Of a DNA stretch of 64,000 nucleotides, positions 2,062-50,206 are shown in pieces. The position numbers were made by a program, and so were the translations under genes. How positions within the stretch are numbered: the first letter of the stretch is position 1; every line of letters starts with the position of its first letter. The notes below the pieces were generated by a model. The model worked only from the letters and a program-made list of their open reading frames with translations. It had not been told where the DNA came from and made no database searches. This DNA comes from Victivallaceae bacterium (GTDB lineage Bacteria; Verrucomicrobiota; Lentisphaeria; Victivallales; Victivallaceae), in the NCBI GenBank assembly GCA_031549115.1, contig JAVBQJ010000071.1:7451-71450 (forward strand), in the 5' to 3' direction.

Positions 2062-2082
2062 AGCGGCCGGCCGAATCGGTTC

Positions 2083-2129
2083 CGGGCAGAGGGGACGAAG
2101 TTTCGTTCTCGCCGCCCGGAATTTTTTTG
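2083..2129 (+). terminator. Rho-independent terminator after the epimerase gene
   Basis: GC-rich hairpin ccgggcagaggggacgaagtttcgttctcgccgcccgg followed by aattttttt. Confidence 0.6.
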
Positions 2130-2175: not shown

Positions 2176-2203
2176 TTGACTTTTCGCTTTTTTGGCCTAT
2201 AAT
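2176..2203 (+). promoter_or_regulatory. Sigma70-like promoter of pseudopilin cassette 1 (TTGACT, 16-nt spacer, TATAAT)
   Basis: Consensus -35 TTGACT at 2176..2181 and perfect -10 TATAAT at 2198..2203. The same arrangement recurs upstream of the paralogous cassette at 6281..6308. Confidence 0.6.
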
Positions 2204-2236
2204 TGTAAGTAGTTTGTTTTTCGTTTTTTTTACGGT

Positions 2237-2256
2237 TATTTGAGTACGATATCAAA
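2237..2256 (+). promoter_or_regulatory. 20-bp palindromic operator-like site ATTTGAgtacgatatCAAAT in the 5' leader
   Basis: Inverted half-sites ATTTGA/TCAAAT. The identical 20-mer is at 6346..6365 at the same position relative to the paralogous promoter. Confidence 0.55.
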
Positions 2257-3019: not shown

Positions 3020-5971
3020 ATGGTTTGGGGTAAGGGGAGATGGAGTGCAATTGCTTTATTGACAATGGTTTTGTCGTTTTTTGGCAATGCTGCTGATAAT
3101 CTGGGCTGGCAGGATCAATTCGACGTCATCGACGCCGATCGCTGGTGCATTGTGCCGGCTTCGGCGGAGATTGTGCCGACGGATAATCTGAGCGCCGCCA
3201 ACCGGGCGTTGAAAATCACGCCGCCGTACAGCCAGCATTACATGGCGACGGGCGATAAGTTTTCCGACGGCGTGTGCGAGATTCGTTTCAAAGCGAAGAG
3301 CACGAACGCCGGCGAATTCATGTACTATATCGGTTTTCATAATTACGAACCGTGGATCAAAGCGTTGTGCTGGGTTGTCATCCACAACGACACGGTGATG
3401 TTTCAGGTCAAAGCGCCGGACGGCACCAACCGCTCGGAAAAGCTGGCGGATCTGACCGACGGCTGGCATACGTTGAAATTGCAGTACGCGCCGGGCGCGA
3501 TCACTGCGGATTGGGACGGGGAGGCGACAATAACGTACGACGATCCGGCGCTGTACTCGCCCGAAGCGATGCCCTTTTTTATCAGTGCCAACACCGAAAG
3601 AATTGATTTTGTCCCGCAGGAGGGTCCCCCGGATACCGCCGAATTGATGGTCGATTACCTGAAAGTTTCCGGCGGCAAGCCGGAGCCGGTCATGACGGCC
3701 CGGGAACTGACCGGGCCGGAAGCCCAATTGGTCGGCGCCGATCCCGTGGTGAAGGCGGTACTGCCGGGCGGCGGCTACGCGATCGCGCTGGATGGCGGCA
3801 TGCACTGGAAATCGATCGTCGTGGACGGGACCGAAATGCTGGACCCGGACTTCTTCGCTCCGGTCTTCGGCGCCCGGGTCGACGGCAAAAACATTTATTC
3901 CCACCAGTTTGAAACCACCGGAGTGGAGCGCTCCGGCGACGCTTTCACGGTGCATTCGCTCCATGCCGCCACTGCGACCGCCGCGACGCTGACCGGCAAG
4001 GTCGAGGCGGGGCGGTTCCTGCTGGGACTGCAATTGGGCAACGGCGCCGGGGAGGAACGCCGGCTGCAGCCGATCTTCCCGATCGTCGGCAGCTTCGCCG
4101 TAAACGGCGACTTCGCCGGGACGGAATACTTCTTCCCGTGGCGCAGCGGGATAATGGGTGACAACACCGCCAGCTTTTTCACCGAATACGGCGGTCTGGG
4201 CTGGATGCAGCTGATGTTCGTCCGGCATCCGGGCGTGGAACGCGGGGTGTATTTTTACCCCGAGGACGCCGGCGGGAGCTTCAAAGGCATGTCGATGAGC
4301 AAGAGGCTGGCCGGGGTCAACCCCGAGGTCTATCACTCCGAGACGGTGCACCCCGAAGAATTCGCGCTGGAGGATATACTCGAAGACCGCACCGGCATGG
4401 TGATGAACTATTACTATCGGACGAACCATGTCGCCCCCGGCGGCACGGTGCAGTTGCCGGACACCGTTTTCAGCGGTTGGAACGGCGGCTGGAAGGAGCC
4501 GATGCGCATCTATGCCGACTGGATGAAGTCGCACATGAGCCCGGTGGAGACGCCGCGTCACTTCCGTGACAGCTTCGCCTGGCAGAACTGGCATCCGCCG
4601 ACCTATTACGACAAGGAGGAGAAGCGGTATATCGGACATGAGCGTCTGGCCGGCGGCGAGGATGCGCTGCAGGCGGCCTTCTGGGATGACTATGTCGAAT
4701 ATCCGCCCAATGCGGTGGTTACCGTTTTGCAGCGGTTTCAGCCCGGCGACTTCGAGGTGAACCGTTCCCGCGGCGGCGTGGAAGCGTTTGCGGCTGAAAT
4801 CGCCAAAATCCGGGCTATCGGAACCCGTTTCTCGATCTACATCGACCACCGCTTCTGCTGGCGTGAAACCAAAACAGCGCAAAAGCACGGTGAAGCGTGG
4901 GCGGTCCGGGATCCGCAAGGCAAACCGTATGGCTACTCCAATGATAACGACCTGTATATGATGTGTTTCTACGATCAGGACAAGTGGGTCGAATATATGG
5001 CGGACACCTGTCATCGGCTGATTCGCGATACCGGCATGGACGCGATTTACCTGGACGAACTCGGTATTGCGTTCCCGTGCTACAGCAAAAGTCACGATCA
5101 TTACCGGAACGGGATGTACCCCACCGATCCGGTGGGGCTGGGCAAGTCGATGACCGTGGTCCGCAATCGCATGAAGGAGGCCAATCCGGAAGCGGCCTTG
5201 ATGACCGAACATGCCGGAAGCGACTACCTGACCCAGTTCTACGACGGCTCCTGGAATCAGACCTTTTACGAAGGGGCATTCCCATTTACCGAAAAATATT
5301 ATGACGATCTGAAGCTGTGCTATTTCCGTTTCCTGTTCCCGCATTTCAAGCTGTCGGAGTGGGGCGGCAGCCGCGATCATATCCGCCGCAGCTTCTTCAA
5401 CGGCATGGGCTGGGACATGGGGGGAGGGCCCGAAACCGACTTATCCCGTACCCTGGCGCGGGTGCTGAAGGAGAACGGCGACGCGATTGCCACCCTCTAT
5501 CCGGAACCGATCGTCCCGACCGGCAACCCCGGTCTCTTGGCGAACCGTTTCGACGCGCCCGGAAAAGTGGTTTATACGTATTACAATAACTCCGAGGCGC
5601 CGCTGACCGCCGGAGTCACCGAAGCCGCGCCGTTTGCCGGGCACTATGTCGAGCTGCGCCACGATGTCATGCTGGATTCCCCGGCCGTCGCCGTTCCCGC
5701 CGGCGAAGTCGCCGCGGTCGCTCTTTACCCGGAATTGCTGAAGTTGGAAGCCGACGGCAACAGCCGCCGGATCACCGCACCGGCGGCGCCGAATCAGGAG
5801 CTCGTGATCTGCGAAGGGGTTGACGATTCGCACTTCCTGCCGCCGCGCGGCACCTGGACACGGATCGACTTCACTACTGGAGAAGCCGCGTATGCGCCGC
5901 GCGACACCAACGTCAAGTTGATCGTCAAGCTGCTCCGCGACGGTTACCTCGTCGACGAATTGGTGCGTTAA
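3020..5971 (+). CDS. Large secreted protein (983 aa): N-terminal lectin/LamG-like (DUF1080-like) beta-sandwich plus central/C-terminal TIM-barrel-like putative glycosidase domain; cassette copy 1
   Basis: The ORF track gives 2843..5971, but that start overlaps the upstream gene. The internal ATG at 3020 has ribosome-binding site ggagcaagaggag and a signal peptide (WSAIALLTMVLSFFGNA). About 65% identity to the paralog at 7159. Motifs IYLDELGIAFPCY and MTEHAGSDY suggest acidic catalytic residues. Family unknown to me. Confidence 0.75.
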   Translation: MVWGKGRWSAIALLTMVLSFFGNAADNLGWQDQFDVIDADRWCIVPASAEIVPTDNLSAANRALKITPPYSQHYMATGDKFSDGVCEIRFKAKSTNAGEFMYYIGFHNYEPWIKALCWVVIHNDTVMFQVKAPDGTNRSEKLADLTDGWHTLKLQYAPGAITADWDGEATITYDDPALYSPEAMPFFISANTERIDFVPQEGPPDTAELMVDYLKVSGGKPEPVMTARELTGPEAQLVGADPVVKAVLPGGGYAIALDGGMHWKSIVVDGTEMLDPDFFAPVFGARVDGKNIYSHQFETTGVERSGDAFTVHSLHAATATAATLTGKVEAGRFLLGLQLGNGAGEERRLQPIFPIVGSFAVNGDFAGTEYFFPWRSGIMGDNTASFFTEYGGLGWMQLMFVRHPGVERGVYFYPEDAGGSFKGMSMSKRLAGVNPEVYHSETVHPEEFALEDILEDRTGMVMNYYYRTNHVAPGGTVQLPDTVFSGWNGGWKEPMRIYADWMKSHMSPVETPRHFRDSFAWQNWHPPTYYDKEEKRYIGHERLAGGEDALQAAFWDDYVEYPPNAVVTVLQRFQPGDFEVNRSRGGVEAFAAEIAKIRAIGTRFSIYIDHRFCWRETKTAQKHGEAWAVRDPQGKPYGYSNDNDLYMMCFYDQDKWVEYMADTCHRLIRDTGMDAIYLDELGIAFPCYSKSHDHYRNGMYPTDPVGLGKSMTVVRNRMKEANPEAALMTEHAGSDYLTQFYDGSWNQTFYEGAFPFTEKYYDDLKLCYFRFLFPHFKLSEWGGSRDHIRRSFFNGMGWDMGGGPETDLSRTLARVLKENGDAIATLYPEPIVPTGNPGLLANRFDAPGKVVYTYYNNSEAPLTAGVTEAAPFAGHYVELRHDVMLDSPAVAVPAGEVAAVALYPELLKLEADGNSRRITAPAAPNQELVICEGVDDSHFLPPRGTWTRIDFTTGEAAYAPRDTNVKLIVKLLRDGYLVDELVR

Positions 5972-5974
5972 AAG

Positions 5975-6290
5975 GCGGTTGTCGAGGAGAAAATGGGGAG
6001 GGCTTCTTGCCCTCCACGCCACCCCGGCAGGGTGCCCCGCGTTACGCTCGCTGACGCGAGCTTACTTTTCGCCCTTGCGCTTCGCGCTGCGTTTACTGCC
6101 GACAATATATGTCCGGTCCCCCGGCTACCCCCTTCAGGACCTACGCCTGTTGTCGGGTTTACCGCCTCCGGCAGGGGACTCCGCATTTCGACATGGTGCA
6201 ATGATTTGCGGTTTGCCGGGATGGAACCGCAAACCGGGAGCGGAATGTCATATAGATTTTGCTTTTTTTCTCCGGCGCTATTGACTTTTT
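5975..6290. repeat. GC-rich hairpin-dense intergenic element related to the repeat at 23949-24480 and 50207-50700
   Basis: Shares the module ccacgccaccccggcagggtgcc with 11860-11890 and, as a reverse complement, with 24440-24460. Several stem-loops are present (gggagggcttcttgccctcc; cggtttgccgggatggaaccgcaaaccg). The six-frame ORFs here (5968..6402 -, 5979..6284 +) have no ribosome-binding site and proline/arginine-rich composition, and are probably spurious. Confidence 0.5.
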
Positions 6291-6308
6291 GTTTTTTTTG
6301 TCTATAAT
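6281..6308 (+). promoter_or_regulatory. Sigma70-like promoter of pseudopilin cassette 2 (TTGACT, 16-nt spacer, TATAAT)
   Basis: Same -35/-10 and spacing as 2176..2203. Confidence 0.6.
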
Positions 6309-6345
6309 TATAAGCAGCTTGTTTCTTCTTTTTTTTTAGAAAAAT

Positions 6346-6365
6346 ATTTGAGTACGATATCAAAT
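6346..6365 (+). promoter_or_regulatory. Second copy of the 20-bp palindrome ATTTGAgtacgatatCAAAT
   Basis: Identical to 2237..2256 and similarly placed downstream of the -10. Confidence 0.55.
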
Positions 6366-6432
6366 TTAAGAAATAGTAACGATTGACGGAAAATACGGAC
6401 AAGAGCCAACATCAAACGAAAGGGATGATGAA

Positions 6433-7128
6433 ATGAAAAAAGGGAGTCGTTTTACACTCATAGAGCTTCTGGTGGTGATTGCGATCATCGCTATTCTCGC
6501 CAGCATGCTGCTGCCGGCGTTGAGCAAGGCGCGCGCCTCCGCGCAGAGCATCAAATGCCTGGGCAATAACAAGCAGATGGCGCTGGGGGCGTTGATGTAT
6601 GCCACCGACAACAATGAGTGGGTGCTGACCGGAGACCGTTCGAAAATGTTGGACGGCAAGGCATGGCCGGAGCAGCTGCGCCGGTACCTGGGCAGCCAGA
6701 AAATATTCGAATGCCCGTCGTACAGCAACGACCGCTATTCCGATACCGGATGGACATTCGACGACGGCGAATTGTACCAGGGTGCATACGGCATGAATGC
6801 CCGGATGGGGGCGGAGGACAATAATCCGCATACGGAAATTCACAAGCTGCCGGGGCCGACCGGCAATACCTTTCCGGTTTTCCTGGAAATCAACGGACCG
6901 TGCGGCCTGGCGTTGATTCACCTGTCCCGCGGCGAATCGGCGGCCAACCTGTGGGGCAAATATACCGACCGGCACAAAAACGGCGGCAACATCGTCTATT
7001 CGGACGGCAGCGCCAGATGGACCAGCTACGATGAATATTCTTCGTTGGTGGATAAGTCGAAAACCGCCGCCGGCGGCAAGATTCCGGGAGACTGGGGTGA
7101 CGCACTGGCGTTCATGCTCGGATACTGA
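6433..7128 (+). CDS. DUF1559 family prepilin-like protein (paralog of 2284..2952)
   Basis: N-terminus [38 protein letters not shown]-terminal ...YSDGSARW motif. Ribosome-binding site aagggatga precedes the ATG. Confidence 0.85.
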
Positions 7129-7158: not shown

Positions 7159-10100
7159 ATGAGTAAGTTACGTTTCTGGTACGGACTCCTGGTTTTGCTC
7201 ATCGGAGCCGGTGTGTATGCCGCTTCCGAAAGTCAGAGCTGGCAGGAGAATTTCGACTCCATCGACACGAAGCGCTGGAAGGTGATTCCGGCTTCGGCGG
7301 AGATCGTACCGACCGATCAATTGAGCGCCGCCAACCGGGCGCTGAAGCTGAATCCGGCGTTGGGGCAGCACTATATGACCACGTCGGACAAGTTCATCGA
7401 CGGCAGTTGTGAAATCCGCTTCAAGGCGAAGCGGCCGTCGTCGGGCGAACTGTTCTATTATATCGGCTTCCACGCCTATGAGCCGTGGGTGAAGGCGTTG
7501 TGCTGGATCATGATTCAGGGCGATACCGTCAGCTTCGGCGTCAAAACCCCGGACGGCGTGAGCCGGTCGGAAAAGCTGGCGGACCTGACCGACGGCTGGC
7601 ATACGCTCAAATTGCATTACTCATCCGATGCGATCTCTGCCGAATGGGATGGCGAGAAGACGCTGACCTACGACGACCCGGCGCTGTATTCCAGCGAGCC
7701 GATGCCGTTTTTCATCGGCGCGTATACCGTCGAAGGGACCAAAGATCCCGCCGAACTGATGGTCGATTATCTGAAAGTCACCGGCGGCAAGCCGGCGGCG
7801 ATAATGGCCCCGCGGACATTGACCGATGCCGAAAAAATGGTGATCGGCGTCGATTCCGTGGTGGCGGCGCAGTTGCCAGGCGAACGCTATGCGATCGCGC
7901 TGGACGGTGGCATGCACTGGCAATCGATTGACGCGGACGGTACCGAAATGCTGGCGCCGGACTTCTTCGCGCCGGTGTTCGGAGCGCGGATCGATGGGAA
8001 AAATGTCTTTTCGCACCAGTTCGAAGTCACCGGAGTGAAGCGCTCCGGCGACGCCTTCGCGGTCGAGCTCCTGTACCCGGAATCCGCGACTGCTGCGACG
8101 GTTTCGGGCGCGGTGAAGGACGGCCGCTTCCGGCTGGATCTGCAATTGCGCAATGACGACAAGCAGGAGCATCGGCTGCAGCCGGTGTTCCCGGTGGTCG
8201 GCAGCCTGGCGGTCGGCGGCGACTTCGCCGGAACCGAATACTTCTTTCCGTGGCGCGGCGGCGTCCTGGGGGACAATACCGCGTATTTTTCGACCGAGTA
8301 CGGCGGGCTGGGGTGGACGCAGTTGATGTTCGTGCTGGATCCCGCCTCCGGCCGCGGGCTGTACTTTTATCCGGAGGACGCCTCCGGCCGCTTCAAAGGC
8401 ATGTCGATGATCAAACAATTGATCGATACCAATGTCGACGTGTACCATACCGAATCGGTGATCGCCGAAGAGGTGCCGACGCTGGATATGCTGGAAAACC
8501 GTACCGGGTTGGTGATGAACTATTACTACCGGACCGAAACGGTCGCGCCTGGTGTCGCGGTGGAGGTGCCGGAAACTGTGTTCGGCAGCTGGCGGGGCGA
8601 CTGGAAAGAGCCGATGCGGCTCTATGCCGACTGGATGAAGTCGCAGATGCAGCCGGTGGAGGTGCCGCGCCAGTTCCGCGACAGCTTCACCTGGGGCAAC
8701 TGGCATCCGCCGGCCTATTACGACAAGCAGGCGCAGCGTTACGTCGGCCGCGAACGGCTGGCCGGCGGCGAAGACGCGCTGCAATGGGCCTTCTGGGATG
8801 ACTATGTCGAATATCCGGCCGATGCGAAAATCCCGTCGCTGCAGCGCTACCAGCTCGGCGACTTCGAGGTGAACCGCTCCCGTGGCGGGATGGAAACTTT
8901 CGCGGCCGAAATTGCCCGGATCCGTGAGGTCGGAACCCGCTTCTCGGTCTACATCGACCACCGTTTCTGCTGGCGCGAAACCAAGACCGCGCAGAAGTAC
9001 GCCGACGCGTGGGCGGTCAAGGACCCGAACGGCAAGCCGTACGGTTATACCTCCGATGAAGACTTGTACATGATGTGCTTCTACGATGCGGACAAGTGGG
9101 TGAACTATATGGCCGAAACCTGCCATGGGCTGATTCGCGACACCGGCATGGATACGATTTACCTGGACGAGCTCGGCATCGCGTTTCCCTGCTACAACAA
9201 GCTGCACAGCCATTATCAGGCGGGGGAGTATCCGACCGATCCGGTCGGCCTGGGGAAGGCGATGACGCTGGTACGCAATCGCATGAAAGAGGCCAATCCG
9301 GAAGCGGCGCTGATGACCGAACACGCCGGCAGCGACTATCTGACCCAGTTCTACGACGGTTCGTGGGACCAGACCTTTTACATGCATGCGTTCCCGTTCA
9401 CCGAGAAGTATTATGACGACCAGAAGATCTGCTACTTCCGTTTCATGTTCCCCAACTTCAAGTTGTCGGAATGGGGCGAGAGCCGTGATCACATCCGGCG
9501 CAGCTTCTTCAACGGCATGGGGTGGGACATGGGGGTGACGGACACCGATCTGTCCCGCACTCTGGCGCGGGTGCTGAAGGAGAACGGCGACGCGATTGCC
9601 ACCCTCCATCCGGAACCGATCGTCCCGACCGGCAACCCCGGTCTCTTGGCGAACCGTTTCGACGCCCCCGGAAAAGTGGTTTACACCTACTATAATAACT
9701 CCGAGGCGCCGCTGACCGCCGGAGTCTCCGAAGCCGCGCCGTTTGCCGGGCACTATGTCGAGCTGCGCCACGATGTCATGCTGGATTCCCCGGCCGTCGC
9801 CGTTCCCGCCGGTGAAGTCGCCGCGGTCGCTCTTTATCCGGAATTGCTGAAGCTGGAAGCCGACGGCAACAGCCGCCGGATCACCGCACCGGCGGCGCCG
9901 AATCAGGAGCTCGTAATCTGCGAAGGCGTTGACGATTCGCATTTTCTGCCGCCGCGCGGCACCTGGACGCGGATCGACTTCGCCTCCGGAGAAGCCGCGT
10001 ATGCGCCGCGCGACACCAACGCCAAGTTGATCGTCAAGCTGCTCCGCGACGGCTATCTCGTCGACGAAGTGGGGGGTGGACGGCAAAGACTCGGCGGGCC

Positions 10101-10317
10101 CGGCCGCACTCCCATCCGGTTGGGAGTGCGGACGGGCCCTTGCATTTTACCCGATATGGTGTTATCTTTTTATTTCATAAGCAATGAAACACCAAGGATA
10201 CGGGAGATCTTTTCATGGAGTTTACTCTTTGGAGTGAGGCGGGCGCGGCAATCGGTTCGGTGGCGGCGAACGGCACGGTGGGGCGCGATGTGCTCGACCG
10301 CGCCGGGGCGGTGTTGA
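7159..10317 (+). CDS. Large secreted lectin-like/TIM-barrel protein, cassette copy 2; annotated ORF carries an ~80-aa C-terminal read-through extension (probable lost stop)
   Basis: Signal peptide LLVLLIGAGVYAASE. Collinear with 3020..5971 up to ...LLRDGYLVDE at 10070. Copy 1 then has a stop, but copy 2 continues through a G-run (gtggggggtgg) and a terminator-like hairpin (10097..10139), and overlaps the next gene. The functional end is probably near 10070-10080. Confidence 0.7.
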   Translation: MSKLRFWYGLLVLLIGAGVYAASESQSWQENFDSIDTKRWKVIPASAEIVPTDQLSAANRALKLNPALGQHYMTTSDKFIDGSCEIRFKAKRPSSGELFYYIGFHAYEPWVKALCWIMIQGDTVSFGVKTPDGVSRSEKLADLTDGWHTLKLHYSSDAISAEWDGEKTLTYDDPALYSSEPMPFFIGAYTVEGTKDPAELMVDYLKVTGGKPAAIMAPRTLTDAEKMVIGVDSVVAAQLPGERYAIALDGGMHWQSIDADGTEMLAPDFFAPVFGARIDGKNVFSHQFEVTGVKRSGDAFAVELLYPESATAATVSGAVKDGRFRLDLQLRNDDKQEHRLQPVFPVVGSLAVGGDFAGTEYFFPWRGGVLGDNTAYFSTEYGGLGWTQLMFVLDPASGRGLYFYPEDASGRFKGMSMIKQLIDTNVDVYHTESVIAEEVPTLDMLENRTGLVMNYYYRTETVAPGVAVEVPETVFGSWRGDWKEPMRLYADWMKSQMQPVEVPRQFRDSFTWGNWHPPAYYDKQAQRYVGRERLAGGEDALQWAFWDDYVEYPADAKIPSLQRYQLGDFEVNRSRGGMETFAAEIARIREVGTRFSVYIDHRFCWRETKTAQKYADAWAVKDPNGKPYGYTSDEDLYMMCFYDADKWVNYMAETCHGLIRDTGMDTIYLDELGIAFPCYNKLHSHYQAGEYPTDPVGLGKAMTLVRNRMKEANPEAALMTEHAGSDYLTQFYDGSWDQTFYMHAFPFTEKYYDDQKICYFRFMFPNFKLSEWGESRDHIRRSFFNGMGWDMGVTDTDLSRTLARVLKENGDAIATLHPEPIVPTGNPGLLANRFDAPGKVVYTYYNNSEAPLTAGVSEAAPFAGHYVELRHDVMLDSPAVAVPAGEVAAVALYPELLKLEADGNSRRITAPAAPNQELVICEGVDDSHFLPPRGTWTRIDFASGEAAYAPRDTNAKLIVKLLRDGYLVDEVGGGRQRLGGPGRTPIRLGVRTGPCILPDMVLSFYFISNETPRIREIFSWSLLFGVRRARQSVRWRRTARWGAMCSTAPGRC
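10097..10139 (+). terminator. Terminator-like hairpin downstream of the conserved end of cassette gene 2
   Basis: gggcccggccgcactccca-tccggt-tgggagtgcggacgggccc (about a 17-bp stem) followed by ttgcatttta. Confidence 0.5.
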
Positions 10318-11831
10318 CGATCAAAGGTTTTGTCCCCTATATCGACGCGGCCGGCTATTGGCACAGCGATCTGGAACGGTTGGCGCCAATGGAGCTGCCG
10401 TGGGTGATCGAGTTCACTTGCGGCGCCAACCGCAGTTTCCCATTCTGGTGTCTGTATAACCAGTCCTATCGCAACTGCGCGGCGGTCGGGTTGACCGATT
10501 GCTTCGACGACTGCCGGGTGCGGGCGAAAATGAATCAGGAAGCCGGTGGCTACGAGCTTTCGTTTGCGCTGTCGGTGGCGCCGGAAACTGAAGCGTTCCG
10601 GGTCTGGGTCGACGCACGGCCGGTTCCGTTTCCGCAGGCGGTGGCCGGGTTTCGGCACGAACTGCTGCCGGCGGCGCCGAAGTACCCCGAAGGGGCGTGG
10701 AATCCGGTTTATTGCACCTGGTACGCGGTGCATACGGTGTTGTCGGAGGCGTATCTGGAGGAGAATGCCCGGATTGCCCGGAAGCTAGGCTTCGGTACCT
10801 TTATCGTCGACGACGGCTGGTGTCTGGACGACAGCAAGCGGGTGACGCCGGCGACCCTGCCGACCTGGTACGAATGGATCGGCGACTGGAAGCTGTCGGA
10901 GAAGAAATTGCCGCAGATGAAGCGGACCATCGCCAGAGCGCAGGCCGACGGCTGGAATTATATGTTCTGGGTGGCGCCGTTTTTTGTCGGCGACCGCAGC
11001 GAACTGGCGCGGCGGGTATCCGATTATCTGACCGATTCGCACGAAGGACAGCGCTTGCTCGATCCGCAGGATCCGGAGATGGCGCAGTTCACGATGGAGA
11101 GCATCCTGAAGGTTTTCCGCGACCTCGAGCTCGACGGGTTGAAAATCGACTTCATCGACATCATCCAGCCGGATGAAAAGCGGCCGCGCAGCCGGGCGGC
11201 GTTCCGCTATGCCGAAGAGCTGGTGCGGCGGATCCGGGAGGTCAAGCCGGAGGCGCTGATCGAATTCCGGCAGAATTACGGCACGCCGGTGATGGCGGGG
11301 CTGGCGACGGCGTTCCGCGCCGGCGACGTGCCGTTCGATTATGTCGAAAACTTCGAACGCTGCGTGCAACTGCGGCTGCTGTTGGGCGACGGCGTGCCGG
11401 TGCATGCCGATCCGGTGTATTTCCGCAACGACGAAACTCCGGTGAACGTGGCGCGGCACATGATGGCGGCGATGGCGGGAGTGCCGATGCTGTCGATGGA
11501 TCTGCGGGAATTGACGGCGGAGCAGTTGACGATCATCGGTAATTATCTGGCGCTCTACCGGAAGCAACAGACGGTGTTGAATTTCGGACATTGGGAGTTC
11601 CGGTTCAGCTTCGGGCATACCCCGTGGGCGCGCTGTAGTCATGAAAGTGGCACGGTGGTATTCGTCTGGGAGCGGGAGTTTCTGGCGCCGGCGCTCGAGG
11701 GCGTGACCGGGTCGGTGACGGTGCTGAACCTGAGCGACGCAGCGCTGTCCATGCCCGGAATGACCGGCTTCGACGCCGCCGGGAAAGCTACCGGTGATGT
11801 CGCCCCCGCCGGCGGGCGCCTGGAGAACTGA
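10215..11831 (+). CDS. Alpha-galactosidase-like glycoside hydrolase (clan GH-D, GH36/GH27-like)
   Basis: Motifs FIVDDGWCLDD and GLKIDFID resemble the DDGW and KxD catalytic regions of GH27/GH36 enzymes. Ribosome-binding site gggagatctttTCATG. 538 aa. Family-level call only. Confidence 0.6.
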   Translation: MEFTLWSEAGAAIGSVAANGTVGRDVLDRAGAVLTIKGFVPYIDAAGYWHSDLERLAPMELPWVIEFTCGANRSFPFWCLYNQSYRNCAAVGLTDCFDDCRVRAKMNQEAGGYELSFALSVAPETEAFRVWVDARPVPFPQAVAGFRHELLPAAPKYPEGAWNPVYCTWYAVHTVLSEAYLEENARIARKLGFGTFIVDDGWCLDDSKRVTPATLPTWYEWIGDWKLSEKKLPQMKRTIARAQADGWNYMFWVAPFFVGDRSELARRVSDYLTDSHEGQRLLDPQDPEMAQFTMESILKVFRDLELDGLKIDFIDIIQPDEKRPRSRAAFRYAEELVRRIREVKPEALIEFRQNYGTPVMAGLATAFRAGDVPFDYVENFERCVQLRLLLGDGVPVHADPVYFRNDETPVNVARHMMAAMAGVPMLSMDLRELTAEQLTIIGNYLALYRKQQTVLNFGHWEFRFSFGHTPWARCSHESGTVVFVWEREFLAPALEGVTGSVTVLNLSDAALSMPGMTGFDAAGKATGDVAPAGGRLEN

Positions 11832-12654: not shown

Positions 12655-12698
12655 TATTCGCGCATTCGTTTCCTCGTCTCAGAAAAACGCAAAAATCA

Positions 12699-12739
12699 AA
12701 CAGTTTAATATTGACAACTGTTTGTGGTGTGCTATATTC
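12699..12739 (+). promoter_or_regulatory. Promoter (TTGACA, 17-nt spacer, TATATT) overlapped by palindrome AACAGTTtaatattgacAACTGTT; likely MarR autoregulatory operator
   Basis: -35 at 12711..12716 and -10 at 12734..12739. Perfect 7-bp inverted repeat 12699..12722 spans the -35. Confidence 0.55.
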
Positions 12740-12770
12740 TCTCTTGCGAAGCGGCGAAAGGAGCTTGACG

Positions 12771-18047: not shown

Positions 18048-18950
18048 CTATTTGGTTTTGCCGCGCCATTGCGCCGGGCTGGCGCCGTAGTAACGCCGGA
18101 AAGCGCGGGACAGCGCGAAGCCGCAGCTGAAGCCGGTTTTGCGGGCGATGGTATCGAGTTTGCAATCGGAATATTGCAGCATCCGCGCGGCGGTGTTCAT
18201 CCGGATCTCCTGCAGCATGGCGCCTGGGGATTTGCCGTAAATGCGGCGCACGGCGAGAAAGAGATTGGGGACCGACATGCCGGCCCTGCGGGCGAATTCC
18301 CGGAGATTCCAGGGGCGGTCCGGGTTTTCTTCGACCTCCTTGAACAGCATGCGGATACGGATCTGCTGCTCCGGGTCGCGGCCGAAGTTGGACAATTCCC
18401 GGTGAAGATACATCACCGCGGCGCGACACAGCAAATGCTGCATCACCGCGTCGCCGCTGCCGTGGATCGCGGTTTCGCTGTACAAGAGCTCCAATACCGA
18501 TCCGATATTTTCCGCCCATTCGGCCGGGCGCACGAGGCAATCCTGCGGCAGCCGTTTCTTCCAGCAGGCCGCGGCCGGGATCAGGTGAAACCACAGTATC
18601 GCCGCCGCCTCTTCGGCATGGTAGCAGTGCGGTGTTTCCGCTTGCAAGTAGATGACATTTCCCGCTCCAACCGTGTTGACCCCGGCGATGCCGCTGTCGC
18701 AGATCAATGCTCCCCGGGTCACATATAAAATGACATGGTACGGGAAATTGAAACGGTTGATCCGGTATCCGTCCGTCAGCTCGCTGATGCCGGCGACGTC
18801 GATCTCCCGGTCCGGCCACAGCCGGTCCGTCTCCTCTCCGAAAAAGATGAAACGTTCCCGGCACCCTACCGGAATGCATTGTACCTCGCGGGCATTTTTC
18901 ATGGTGACTTCCATATCCTTTATGATAACTGAAAAATCCCCGGTTGTCAA
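18048..18950 (-). CDS. AraC family transcriptional regulator (cupin-like sensor plus C-terminal AraC helix-turn-helix)
   Basis: C-terminal helix-turn-helix region LREFARRAGMSVPNLFLAVRRIYGKSPGAMLQEIRMNTAARML...LDTIARKTGFSCGFALSRAFRRYYGASP. Start is uncertain (alternatives at 18911 or 18902). Confidence 0.75.
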   Translation of the reverse strand: MTTGDFSVIIKDMEVTMKNAREVQCIPVGCRERFIFFGEETDRLWPDREIDVAGISELTDGYRINRFNFPYHVILYVTRGALICDSGIAGVNTVGAGNVIYLQAETPHCYHAEEAAAILWFHLIPAAACWKKRLPQDCLVRPAEWAENIGSVLELLYSETAIHGSGDAVMQHLLCRAAVMYLHRELSNFGRDPEQQIRIRMLFKEVEENPDRPWNLREFARRAGMSVPNLFLAVRRIYGKSPGAMLQEIRMNTAARMLQYSDCKLDTIARKTGFSCGFALSRAFRRYYGASPAQWRGKTK

Positions 18951-18978
18951 ATCGAAAGTTATGCTTTTCTCGATTTGA
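18947..18978. promoter_or_regulatory. Inverted repeat TCAAATCGA-N14-TCGATTTGA in the AraC/pseudopilin divergent region
   Basis: Perfect 9-bp arms. Half-sites TCAAAT/ATTTGA are the same hexamers as in the 20-bp palindrome upstream of the other two pseudopilin genes. Confidence 0.45.
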
Positions 18979-19101: not shown

Positions 19102-19818
19102 ATGAACCGGAAAAATGGGAAAGCTTCCGATTCTCGGAACCGCGGCCGGAGTTTTACTTTGATAGAACTCCTGGTCGTGATCGCGATCATTGCGATTCTC
19201 GCCAGCATGCTGCTGCCGGCCCTGTCCAAGGCGCGGGCGGCGGCGCAGAATATCAAATGTGTCAACAACTTCAAGCAGATCGGCCTGGCGGCGGCGATGT
19301 ACCAGGGCGACAACAAAGACACGCTGGCGACCGGAAGGAATGGATTCTATGGCGGCACCGGCGAATGGGCCGGGCGTTTTCAGGGTTGGTGGCTGGATCT
19401 GGCGGTGACCGGATATCTGCCGGACGATTACGCCTATGACTGGTTCAGTGCCATCAACACGTTGGGCCACAAAGCCCTGGCTTGCCCGGTCATGGTCAAC
19501 AGCGGCGAGCGCTACAACTACGGCATCAACGAACTGCTGACCGGAGAATACTGCGGGTCGTTCCTGTATGGACGTACAAACTACGGAATGGCGACCGGCT
19601 TCGAAAATCCGTCGGGGCGCGCTTATCTGCTGGAGCCGACCGCCCGCGGCGACGGCATGTACATTTATACCACATTGGACACCGGCCGGGCGGTGGAGCG
19701 CGACCGTCACGGCAACTCCAGCAATGTGCTCTTCCTCGACGGCCATGCGGAGAGCATCCGTAAGGACGCGTTGAAAGATAGCCGCATCGAATTCCCCTGG
19801 AACGAAGCCACCGAATAA
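19102..19818 (+). CDS. DUF1559 family prepilin-like protein
   Basis: [41 protein letters not shown]-terminal [14 protein letters not shown] (the DUF1559 LFxDGHV motif). Ribosome-binding site gaaaggagtcgatgtcATG. Confidence 0.85.
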
Positions 19819-46727: not shown

Positions 46728-47801
46728 TTATCGCAGCGAAAACGGTTTGGCCGGGGCGGCGCCGGTGGATTCGCGCACCACCAGATTGGCCTTCAGCAAT
46801 ACCTGGTTGGGGATGTGGTCCCAGTCGGGTTTCTCCAATTGATGCAGCAACAGCTGCCACGCCGCCTGCGCCGACTCCGCCTGCCGCATGTCGATGCTGG
46901 TGAGAGTGATATGATTGTATTCGGCGATCAGCATATTATCCGAACCGATCACCGAGATGTCCTTCGGCACCTGGGCTCCGAGCTCCTGCAGCCCACGCAG
47001 CAGGCCGAATGCGAGCAGGTCATTCTGGCATTGGATGGCGGTGACCCTGGGTTTGCACTCGAACAGGGTTCGCGCCGCCCGGTAGCCGTCCTCGATCATG
47101 CCCTCGCCGCGCCGGCTCCGGCACACGAACGCCGGATCCCAGTCGGTAACGCCGTACTCCCGCAGCGTCTGCAGGATGATCTGGTGCGACTGGTTGTTGG
47201 CGCTGTCATTGTCGCCGGATACGGTATGGGCGATATGGCGGTGTCCCTGCGACAGCAGCATCCGCAATCCGGCCTGCACCGCGGTGAGGTTATCGACCTG
47301 AACGGTAAACAGACCCGGGTGTGTTTCCATATCCTGCGGGGGGCCGATCACCACCAGCGGCCGTTGCGTCGCCAGCAGCCGTTCGATCGCCGGGGCCACC
47401 GTCTGAAAGCAGCTCAGGTACGCCGCCACAGCGGCATAATCATTCTGAACGATGTGTTCAAAGGTCTGGCGTTGCCCTTCGGCGTCCGCCGGCAACTCCA
47501 GCAGCACCACCTGGTAGCCGTCCGGGGTGCATTGCGCTTTGAAGGTCTCGATCAGCGAATACTGGTTGGTCACATCCAGCCGCGGCAATACCAGCGCCAC
47601 CTGTTTGCTGTGCCCCACCTTCAGCGACACCGCGGCCTGGTTCGGCATGTAACCCATGTCGGCAGCCAGCTTCTGGATGCGTTCCCGGGTTTCGGCTTTG
47701 ATCCGGGGCAGGTTGCGCAAAGCCATGCTCACGGTCGCATGACTCAGCTGCGCCTCTCGGGCAATGTCGTAAATCGTTACCGCCACTTTGACCGACCCCA
47801 T
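46728..47801 (-). CDS. LacI family transcriptional regulator
   Basis: N-terminal helix-turn-helix TIYDIAREAQLSHATVSMALRN, followed by a periplasmic-binding-protein-like sugar-binding domain. Leads the phosphoesterase/pseudopilin/DUF4838-like operon. Confidence 0.85.
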   Translation of the reverse strand: MGSVKVAVTIYDIAREAQLSHATVSMALRNLPRIKAETRERIQKLAADMGYMPNQAAVSLKVGHSKQVALVLPRLDVTNQYSLIETFKAQCTPDGYQVVLLELPADAEGQRQTFEHIVQNDYAAVAAYLSCFQTVAPAIERLLATQRPLVVIGPPQDMETHPGLFTVQVDNLTAVQAGLRMLLSQGHRHIAHTVSGDNDSANNQSHQIILQTLREYGVTDWDPAFVCRSRRGEGMIEDGYRAARTLFECKPRVTAIQCQNDLLAFGLLRGLQELGAQVPKDISVIGSDNMLIAEYNHITLTSIDMRQAESAQAAWQLLLHQLEKPDWDHIPNQVLLKANLVVRESTGAAPAKPFSLR

Positions 47802-47815
47802 GCTGTTTACAGAAA

Positions 47816-47963
47816 GTTAATCGAGTAAATTATGTTTGAGAATATTATAGCAAACAAAGCTCCCATTGTCAAGAGTAGTTATGAAAAAAAGTGCTTTTTT
47901 TATTGTTTTTTGATAAAATCCCGAATTTGTGGTTGTAAACCTGGTGTTAATCGAGTAAATTAT
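47816..47963. promoter_or_regulatory. Divergent LacI / GH36 control region with two direct copies of GTTAATCGAGTAAATTAT
   Basis: Copies at 47816..47833, immediately upstream of the lacI-family start, and at 47946..47963, immediately upstream of the GH36 start. Both are in AT-rich promoter-like sequence. Confidence 0.5.
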
Positions 47964-48007
47964 AATTGAAAACAGTAACACTTGAAAATGGGGAACAGAA
48001 TCGTATT

Positions 48008-50206
48008 ATGATAAAGCTTAACCGGCTTCCGCATTCGTTCGAGTTGGTGACCCGCCATACTTCGTATATGCTCGGCGTCTCCGCCGACGGCAAGCTGCAG
48101 CACTGGTTCTGGGGAGTCCGCCCGGAAGGAGCCGAACCCCGCCCCATTTCGCCGGATTTGAAGCTGGATTCCAATTTTTCCAGCCAGGACGATCAGACCG
48201 AGCAGCTCGAGGTGAAAAGTTACGGCGAAATCATTTATCACGGCGTCGGTTTGAAATTGAATTTTCGTCTCCCCGACGGCAGCGAAATTCGGGACTGTCG
48301 GTTGCGTTTCGAAAAGGCGGGGGTCGTTGCCGATGCCCGTCCCGCCCTTGCGCCCGCATCGCCGGTGCGTGACACGGCTTCGCGCGAAACCCTGGTGATT
48401 CACCTGGCCGATCCGGTATACCCGCTCCGGGTCCGGCTGTATTACCGGGTCACCGAAGAACTCGACATCATCGAACGCTGGATGGAAGTGGAGAATAGTT
48501 CCCGCGATGTTGTGATCGCGGTGGAAAAACTGAGTTTCGCGTCGGTGCCGTTCCCGTCGGGCACGACGGAACTGACCTCGCTTTCCGGGCGTTGGGGGCA
48601 TGAATTCAATGCCACCCGGGGTGCGTTGCCGGTGGGAACTACGCTGATCGAATCGCACGGCCTGACCACCAGTGCGGACGCCAACCCCGGATTTCTACTC
48701 AACCGGCCGCATCAGGCGTGGGAGGAGCATGGGACAGTTTACTTCGGCGCGCTGGCGTTCAGCGGTCATTACGAATTGGCGTTCGAGCGCCAATCCAGCG
48801 GGATGGTGCATTTGCATGCCGGCTACAATTCATTGGATTTCGAACTGCTTCTGGCCCCCGGCGAATGCCATGCCACCCCGCAGGCGATTCTCGGCTGCTG
48901 CCCGGACGGCTGGGGCGGCGCCAGCCGCCGGATGCACCGGCTGATCCGCGACCGCATCCAGCCCGCGCCGCCGCAACAGGAGTTCCTGCGTCCGGTGCTT
49001 TACAACAGCTGGGAGGCGACCATGTTCGATATCCGTGTTGCGGACCAGATGGCTCTGGCGGAAAAAGCGGCGGCAATCGGGATCGAGCTTTTTTGCATGG
49101 ATGACGGCTGGTTCGGAGCGCGGCGCGCCGACAACGCCGGATTGGGCGACTGGTTTCCGGCGCAGGAATTGTTCCCGGACGGTCTCAAGCCGCTGAGCGA
49201 CCATGTGCGCAAACTGGGGATGAAATTCGGTCTGTGGGTGGAGCCGGAGATGGTCAACCCCGACTCCGAGCTCTTTCGGGCGCATCCGGAGTGGGCGCTC
49301 CAGGTACCGGGACGGCCGTTGCGTGAATCGCGCAACCAGTTGATTCTGGATTTCGGGCGCGAAGAGGTGGTGGAGTATATCTACGGGCGGCTGGAAGCGC
49401 TGGTCGTCGAAGCCGGAGTGGATTTCTTCAAGTGGGATATGAACCGGCGGCCGAGCGAAAACGGCTCGGAGGCCGGCCGGGCGCTATGGCGGCGCCATGC
49501 GGAAAAGGTCTATGACATCATGGACCGGCTGCGGGCGCAATATCCGCATCTGGCGATTCAGAGCTGCTCCTCCGGCGGCGCCCGGATCGATGCCGGTATC
49601 CTCGGCCGCACCGATCAGGCGTGGACTTCAGACAATACCGATGCGATGGACCGGATGCAGATTCAGGAGGGTTACAGTCTCCTGTACCCGGCCCGCGCGA
49701 TGGAATGCTGGGTTACCGACGAGGTCAACCCCCAGACCGGGCGGATTTGGCCGGTGAGTCTGCGCTTCGATGTCGCTATGCGCGGCACGCTCGGCATCGG
49801 TACTGATTTGAATGAAATGACACCGGAAGAATTGGAACAGTTCCGTACCTACATCGCCTTTTATAAGCGCATTCGTCCGGTGGTGCAAGCCGGCGAGCTG
49901 CACCGGCTCGTCCGCAGTGAGGAAAACGGCGCCAGCATCATCGAATACGTGCTCCCGGACGCTTCCAGCGCCGTAGTCAGCATCGTCCGCGGCTGGTGCC
50001 GGATTTCCAACTTCCTGGCACCGTGCCCGCTATTCGGACTCGATCCTGCCGCCGATTACGAAATTTTCGACTGGCACGGCAAGCTGATCGACTGCCGCAG
50101 CGGCTACGAACTCGCGACCCGCGGCATCGAAGTCAATTCATTTTATGAATATCGCGCCCACACCGTTTCCGGTTTCAGCGCCACCTATCATTTGAAGCGG
50201 CGGTGA
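48008..50206 (+). CDS. Alpha-galactosidase, glycoside hydrolase family 36
   Basis: GH36 hallmarks CMDDGWFG, KWDMNR (nucleophile region), and PEWALQVPGRP. About 730 aa. The ORF track start at 47966 is a TTG; the ATG at 48008 is preferred. Confidence 0.8.
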   Translation: MIKLNRLPHSFELVTRHTSYMLGVSADGKLQHWFWGVRPEGAEPRPISPDLKLDSNFSSQDDQTEQLEVKSYGEIIYHGVGLKLNFRLPDGSEIRDCRLRFEKAGVVADARPALAPASPVRDTASRETLVIHLADPVYPLRVRLYYRVTEELDIIERWMEVENSSRDVVIAVEKLSFASVPFPSGTTELTSLSGRWGHEFNATRGALPVGTTLIESHGLTTSADANPGFLLNRPHQAWEEHGTVYFGALAFSGHYELAFERQSSGMVHLHAGYNSLDFELLLAPGECHATPQAILGCCPDGWGGASRRMHRLIRDRIQPAPPQQEFLRPVLYNSWEATMFDIRVADQMALAEKAAAIGIELFCMDDGWFGARRADNAGLGDWFPAQELFPDGLKPLSDHVRKLGMKFGLWVEPEMVNPDSELFRAHPEWALQVPGRPLRESRNQLILDFGREEVVEYIYGRLEALVVEAGVDFFKWDMNRRPSENGSEAGRALWRRHAEKVYDIMDRLRAQYPHLAIQSCSSGGARIDAGILGRTDQAWTSDNTDAMDRMQIQEGYSLLYPARAMECWVTDEVNPQTGRIWPVSLRFDVAMRGTLGIGTDLNEMTPEELEQFRTYIAFYKRIRPVVQAGELHRLVRSEENGASIIEYVLPDASSAVVSIVRGWCRISNFLAPCPLFGLDPAADYEIFDWHGKLIDCRSGYELATRGIEVNSFYEYRAHTVSGFSATYHLKRR

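Follow-up and report, generated by a model that had tools for sequence, protein, structure and literature searches.

A putative LacI-type operator in the leaders of two pseudopilin–DUF6259 cassettes of a Victivallaceae bacterium

Pseudopilin-led hydrolase cassettes are very numerous in the Victivallales, which degrade glycans in the gut and in sediments. Two such cassettes lie in tandem in the window analysed here, the whole stretch of 64 kb, and the same 20 bp inverted repeat is present in the leader of each. The question raised by this locus is whether the repeat is an operator, an element of the leader RNA or a sequence left identical by recent copying and, if it is an operator, which regulator would bind it. 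A literature search covering DUF1559/pseudopilin cassettes and the LacI of Victivallis gave no relevant result, and no paper was found on transcriptional control in the Victivallales. The answer favoured below, a LacI-family operator, is a textbook type of switch, and its host belongs to a little-studied gut bacterial group.

An inverted repeat in two leaders

The sequence ATTTGAGTACGATATCAAAT is present as two exact copies in the 64 kb window, at 2238–2257 and 6346–6365, neither assigned to a strand. No third copy was found in the window with up to three mismatches, and none is expected from shuffled sequence. The first-pass annotation gave the position of the second copy correctly and placed the first at 2237–2256, 1 nt away from its true location. 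It also described the sequence as a 20 bp palindrome. This is an inverted repeat, however the symmetry is not perfect, with 14 of the 20 positions being symmetric. The arms are 6 bp (ATTTGA/TCAAAT) and are separated by an 8 nt spacer with a symmetric CG at its centre; thus the element has an even length of 20, a central CG, and TG/CA at ±6/5 from the centre.

The centre of copy 1 is 36 bp 5' of the ATG at 2284 and that of copy 2 is 77 bp 5' of the ATG at 6433. From the -10 box to the palindrome the distances are 34 nt and 37 nt, respectively. If transcription starts about 7 nt past the -10 box, the palindromes would be at roughly +30 to +50, with copy 1 at about +29 to +48.

Exact 20-mer scans of the GTDB representative genomes and of the JGI metagenomes, neither of which contains the source genome, returned chance matches only, within coding DNA of unrelated low-GC organisms. 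A general association of the palindrome with DUF1559/pseudopilin genes is not supported, as the pseudopilin genes at 19102 and 45483 in the window are without the motif, and so are several related pseudopilin cassettes in other genomes.

The shared promoter block

A promoter of the form TTGACT-16-TATAAT was proposed before each cassette by the first-pass annotation, and its hexamers are present in both cases, at 2176–2203, where the 16 nt spacer is T-rich, and at 6281–6308. Both are σ70-type sequences on the plus strand with 11 of 12 consensus matches, and the transcription start is predicted near 2210 for cassette 1 and near 6315 for cassette 2. Upstream of cassette 1, an intrinsic-terminator-like hairpin and T-run at 2080–2128 (plus strand; inverted repeat 2080–2099/2102–2121 followed by TTTTTTT) closes the preceding epimerase gene, and the cassette therefore needs a promoter of its own.

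Alignment of the two leaders reveals a continuous common block of approximately 115 nt, about 2148–2260 and 6253–6368, that is 83% identical. On the plus strand this opens with a T-rich, UP-element-like stretch 5' of the -35 box (2148–2175, containing CGGAGCTA, and 6253–6280), and it goes on through the promoter and a T-rich leader to the palindrome. The homology breaks off abruptly 5' of the block and 3 nt past the palindrome, and leader 2 is approximately 41 nt longer than leader 1. The flanks of the palindrome had been reported as otherwise diverged, which is true beyond the abrupt edges of the block and not within it. The longest identical run in the block is 23 nt and contains the palindrome. 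By our estimate a run of this length in a block that is 83% identical has a chance probability of roughly 0.1–0.2, which is mildly unusual within this genome alone.

A pyrimidine-rich or U-rich leader segment follows the promoter or operator in several lineages. It is located at 2212–2231 and 6317–6337 in the window and, among relatives, at 3574–3611 in contig L018, 3574–3600 in L005 and 7066–7085 in L016. Examples are GTTTGTTTTTCGTTTTTTTT and, in L018 and L016, TTTCCCGTTTCTG. This segment might enhance translation or belong to the promoter architecture.

Genes of the two cassettes

The first cassette has a pseudopilin-like gene with a prepilin N-methylation motif (2284–2952) and a gene for a 983 aa DUF6259 protein with a signal peptide (3020–5971), a putative glycoside hydrolase. 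The second has a pseudopilin-like gene at 6433–7128 and a gene for a paralogous DUF6259 protein of 1052 aa at 7159–10317. All four are on the plus strand. The nearest relatives of the window DUF6259 proteins are from Victivallis vadensis and uncultured Victivallis sp., at about 45–54% identity, with protein 2 being 52–54% identical to the Victivallis DUF6259 proteins of pseudopilin-DUF6259-GH38-MFS cassettes. These matches place the window in a Victivallis-like member of the Lentisphaerota. No sequence relative of the DUF6259 protein was found in the PDB.

The two DUF6259 genes are 80% identical in DNA and 75% in protein, and identical runs of 21–85 nt are found within the coding duplicates. 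Over the last ~500 nt (5489–5963 against 9600–10072) the identity is 94–96%, with 67–84% in the remainder. This climb to about 95% suggests recent gene conversion between the tandem paralogues. Copy 2 has a C-terminal extension of approximately 80 aa (10072–10317) without a counterpart in copy 1. The extension overlaps the start of the next ORF, which is melibiase-like (10215–11831); the overlap may reflect read-through, a frameshift or a wrong start call for the gene that follows.

A simple tandem duplication was rejected as the full account of the two cassettes, because their pseudopilins differ in type. The best full-length match of pseudopilin 1 is the pseudopilin (ppA) that heads an operon with the LacI-family gene LacI_a in the Victivallis contig L018 (42%). 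For pseudopilin 2 it is the pseudopilin (ppB) of a cassette in L018 that is linked to a second LacI-family gene, LacI_b (43%). Pseudopilins 1 and 2 are alike in the N-terminal part only, and even there the likeness of their coding DNA is barely above that to the window pseudopilin genes at 19102 and 45483. What the two cassettes specifically share thus comes down to the promoter block and the DUF6259 gene. These comparisons indicate that the cassettes are mosaics, in which the promoter block would be a separately shared module.

Related sites in Victivallis-like loci

Related contigs were fetched through orthologues of DUF6259 and then through orthologues of LacI_a. In those fetched through DUF6259, a LacI-family gene adjoins the cassettes. 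Contigs L018, L019, L020 and L003 represent one species, so that the independent motif-carrying lineages number four, including the window.

In L018, L019 and L020 (uncultured Victivallis sp.), ATTTGAGTACGATATCAAAT is present at 3612–3631, identical to the window sites at 20 of 20 positions, 5' of a pseudopilin(ppA)-LamG/DUF6259-GH95-LacI_a operon. This site is here called O2. A consensus-like site, O1 (AGGTGATAACGTTATCAATT), is found at 3554–3573, directly after the -10 box of the same promoter. O1 and O2 are 58 bp apart, centre to centre, and O2 is the weaker, with three mismatches to the core. In L005, ATTTGATAACGTTATCAAAT at 3554–3573 is a perfect palindrome just past the promoter of GH95-LacI_a. 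It is identical to the window 20-mer at 17 of 20 positions, with the arms, spacing and central CG alike. Four variant sites are found in L016/L017. One precedes the LacI_a orthologue, and each of the three transcription units that follow has one at its promoter, the last of these units being pseudopilin-LamG/DUF6259-GH95-GH38. In each of these lineages, therefore, the motif recurs beside an orthologous LacI_a gene.

The close variants in L005 and L016 contain the core TTGATAACGTTATCAA, from which the window sites differ at 3 of 16 positions. With up to three mismatches, this core was observed four times in L016, against 0.11 expected, twice in L018 (0.02 expected) and twice in the window (0.07 expected). 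All of these matches are in promoter regions, with coding DNA having four-mismatch matches only. The central CG, at positions 10–11, is present in all nine of the sites collected. LacI_a-type sites were not found in L010, L011, L013, L014, L015, L021 or L022/L023. Among these, L021 has a LacI_a orthologue with no site nearby, and L013, L014 and L022 have more distant DUF6259 cassettes.

The window block and the ppA promoter of L018 are 84–85% identical over aligned columns, including CGGAGCTATTGACTTTTC and the whole palindrome; CGGAGCTA is likewise conserved in L018. A gap of approximately 21–23 nt in this alignment removes O1, and the nucleotides right beside the palindrome differ. Since TATTGACTTTT, a T-rich spacer and TATAAT recur at unrelated promoters of the related genomes, part of the identity between the window and L018 promoters reflects a clade-wide promoter consensus. 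The palindrome itself is exactly conserved while the orthologous proteins are only 42–54% identical, which argues for selection on it. Of the two roles suggested earlier, regulatory operator or 5'-UTR element, it is the operator that is supported by this conservation across lineages; the case for an RNA element is weak at best.

The type of regulator

The LacI_a proteins are 342–373 aa. In five orthologues, 46–100% identical overall, the recognition helix is always VSMTTIYN and the hinge always PDALAQAMVRGKS. The paralogue LacI_b, from the same Victivallis loci, has the helix VSIVTVYN. The operator linked to it, TTTATAACGTACTAAA, is found 5' of the LacI_b gene and differs from that of LacI_a precisely in having TT/AA in place of the outer TG/CA. 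A LacI_b-like site is also present in L005, in the promoter of ppB-DUF6259-GH38-MFS. A paired change in regulator and site is the expected pattern of LacI-family specificity. The window palindrome carries TG/CA and can on that basis be assigned to the LacI_a type.

Operators of the LacI/GalR family include those of PurR and RbsR and the cre sites of CcpA. Ravcheev et al. (2014; PMC4052901) describe the motifs of LacI-family regulators as palindromes of even length, 16–22 nt. They report a central CG for 1173 of the 1303 regulators, a location 30–140 bp 5' of the start codon for more than 75% of sites, and autoregulation for about three quarters of the local regulators; the text of that paper makes no mention of the Victivallales or the Lentisphaerota. 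The window sites resemble such local operators (PMC4052901) in their even length of 20 bp, central CG, outer TG/CA and location 30–140 bp before the start codon. The resemblance would extend to the control of glycoside hydrolase and sugar uptake genes and, in the related loci, to autoregulation of the regulator genes. Unlike the local operators of PMC4052901, the window sites have no regulator gene adjacent to them, are at about +30 to +50 rather than over the promoter, and precede operons headed by pseudopilin-like genes.

No LacI_a-type gene was found within the 64 kb window. The sole LacI-family gene there (46728–47801, minus strand) was rejected as the regulator, as its product is 19–25% identical to LacI_a, has a different HTH and has its own 18 nt repeat in the divergent promoter region. 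This repeat, GTTAATCGAGTAAATTAT, is found as two direct copies, at 47816–47833 and 47946–47963, between the LacI gene and a GH36 alpha-galactosidase-like gene (47966–50206). The repeat has a central CG and is imperfectly palindromic, five of seven positions being symmetric per half; it is a candidate operator for this LacI. The gene heads an operon with a phosphoesterase-family gene, the fourth pseudopilin gene and a DUF4838 gene.

Each palindrome is probably the operator of a dimeric LacI-family repressor, LacI_a, that would be encoded outside the window. Because the window is without such a LacI, the repressor is taken to be present elsewhere in the source genome and to act in trans.

Proposed mode of action

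Without its sugar effector, LacI_a would bind the 20 bp site early in the transcript, about +30 to +50 from a strong consensus promoter. The bound repressor would stop transcription of both pseudopilin-DUF6259 cassettes, acting as a roadblock or hindering promoter escape. An oligosaccharide or sugar from the target glycan would free the repressor. This glycan probably contains mannose or fucose, since the regulon in the relatives holds GH95 fucosidase-like, GH38 mannosidase-like, MFS and DUF6259 genes and the window neighbours of the cassettes encode an AGE-family epimerase and the melibiase-like protein.

Auxiliary or downstream operators are known in the LacI family from E. coli lac O2, gal OI and the roadblock cre sites of CcpA. 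The L018 promoter is similar, in that a consensus-like proximal site over the start is paired with a weaker distal site, and the window sites are the counterpart of the distal one, O2, with the proximal O1 missing. Unlike these auxiliary operators, the window copies have the distal site only. In addition, LacI_a has no obvious C-terminal tetramerisation extension, therefore DNA looping is not expected. A roadblock is a presumed mode of action. Since only the weaker O2 type is left in the window, repression may be weaker or partial.

The candidate regulator–operator pair consists of a TTGAKWACGWWMTCAA-like motif and a LacI with the helix VSMTTIYN, and the paralogous LacI_b pair differs from it at defined positions. 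The two pairs could offer a means of mapping glycan-utilisation regulons and of guessing at the substrates of the DUF6259 enzymes.

Alternative explanations for the palindrome

The palindrome might instead act as RNA, either as a 5'-leader hairpin that affects mRNA stability or translation or as the target of an RNA-binding protein; the U-rich leader might take part as well. In both window copies and in O2 of L018 transcription is predicted to start 5' of the site, the 6 bp stem with its 8 nt loop is present in every fold, the loop sequence is as conserved as the stem, and the U-tract of copy 1 can pair with the ribosome-binding region. The hairpin is nonetheless weak, at -3.1 kcal/mol, with z-scores of -0.5 and -1.3 for the local folds and of -0.3 and +0.1 for the whole leaders, and there is no Rfam match in the window. 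The copies being identical, there is no covariation. The central CG and the TG/CA are accounted for by LacI contacts and not by RNA pairing. Several variants in the related loci start 2–8 nt past the -10 box or overlap it. These cannot be fully transcribed, which argues that the site acts as DNA, and makes a role as RNA improbable.

The identity of the two palindromes could also be without function, having been left by recent copying of the promoter block between the cassettes through duplication or gene conversion. The entire block of ~115 nt is 83% identical, and the similarity of the DUF6259 genes (80%, rising to 95% over the last ~500 nt, with identical runs of 21–85 nt) points to ongoing gene conversion. 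Against this, the 20-mer is conserved at 20 of 20 positions in another lineage despite orthologous proteins that are 42–54% identical and leader flanks that differ, and two more lineages have variants at promoters that adjoin LacI_a genes, far more than chance predicts. A neutral remnant is on this evidence quite improbable.

Binding by another regulator, such as the AraC-family protein encoded at 18048–18950 or a member of some other family, is the least probable of the alternatives. In its favour, TCAAAT and ATTTGA also flank an inverted repeat with 9 bp arms in the region that divides the AraC gene from the third pseudopilin cassette, and the assignment of a regulator is never certain from computation alone. 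In that repeat, however, the half-sites are in the opposite order, the arms are 14 nt apart and overlap two divergent -35 boxes, and a central CG is absent. Both hexamers are common in the window, with 19 and 14 copies. The 20-mer motif is missing from the third and fourth pseudopilin genes, and in the relatives it accompanies a LacI gene and not an AraC gene. A recurrence of the half-sites at 18947–18978 had been noted in the first-pass annotation. The hexamers are indeed there, TCAAAT at 18947 and ATTTGA at 18973, yet this is not the same element, the order being reversed and the gap being 20 nt rather than 8. The suggestion that the AraC protein binds the palindrome is consequently not supported, as the repeat next to its gene differs and the motif is of the LacI type and accompanies a LacI gene in the relatives.

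The repeat at 18947–18978, TCAAATCGA-N14-TCGATTTGA, has perfect 9 bp arms. It separates the AraC-family gene from the divergently oriented third pseudopilin cassette, which is pseudopilin-GH2-pectate-lyase-like. One arm overlaps the minus-strand -35 box TTGACA (18950–18945), the other the plus-strand box TGAACA (18976). The repeat is probably an operator in its own right, serving this divergent AraC/pseudopilin-3 pair.

Possible exchange of promoter modules

Orthologues of the window DUF6259 genes sit in LacI_b-linked Victivallis cassettes, while in the window the promoter is of the ppA type and the operator of the LacI_a type. Regulatory rewiring through the transfer of a promoter module is therefore possible. 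Tentatively, the ~115 nt block of promoter plus operator might be a portable module, and swaps of such modules might rewire the regulon membership of pseudopilin-led glycan cassettes, although this is a doubtful extension of the operator assignment. In the window the module would have come to stand before a ppB-type pseudopilin plus DUF6259 cassette, the Victivallis counterparts of which adjoin LacI_b and, in L005, bear its type of operator. If it is true, the near-invariant N-terminal coding sequence of the prepilins could be a recombination anchor, and loss of O1 would tune the strength of repression.

In L013, another Victivallales-like contig, a near-identical promoter block, CTTGATTTTTATTTGTAATAsATTATAATATAAAT, is found at 765–810 and 9050–9100, before two different cassettes. 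The sharing of promoter modules among glycan cassettes may be common in the Victivallales-like clade.

Other inverted repeats were also seen. In L022, a relative with 44% GC, a long perfect inverted repeat, GTTTCCGGTAATCAAAC-N7-GTTTGATTACCGGAAAC, is present at 3350–3400 between adjacent pseudopilin genes, 5' of a DUF6259 gene. It is unrelated to the LacI_a motif and could be an operator or a terminator. In the window, an imperfect inverted repeat with 25 nt arms that are 72% complementary (12681–12740) overlaps a TTGACA-16-TATATT promoter 5' of a MarR-HlyD-ABC transporter operon and is a candidate MarR operator.
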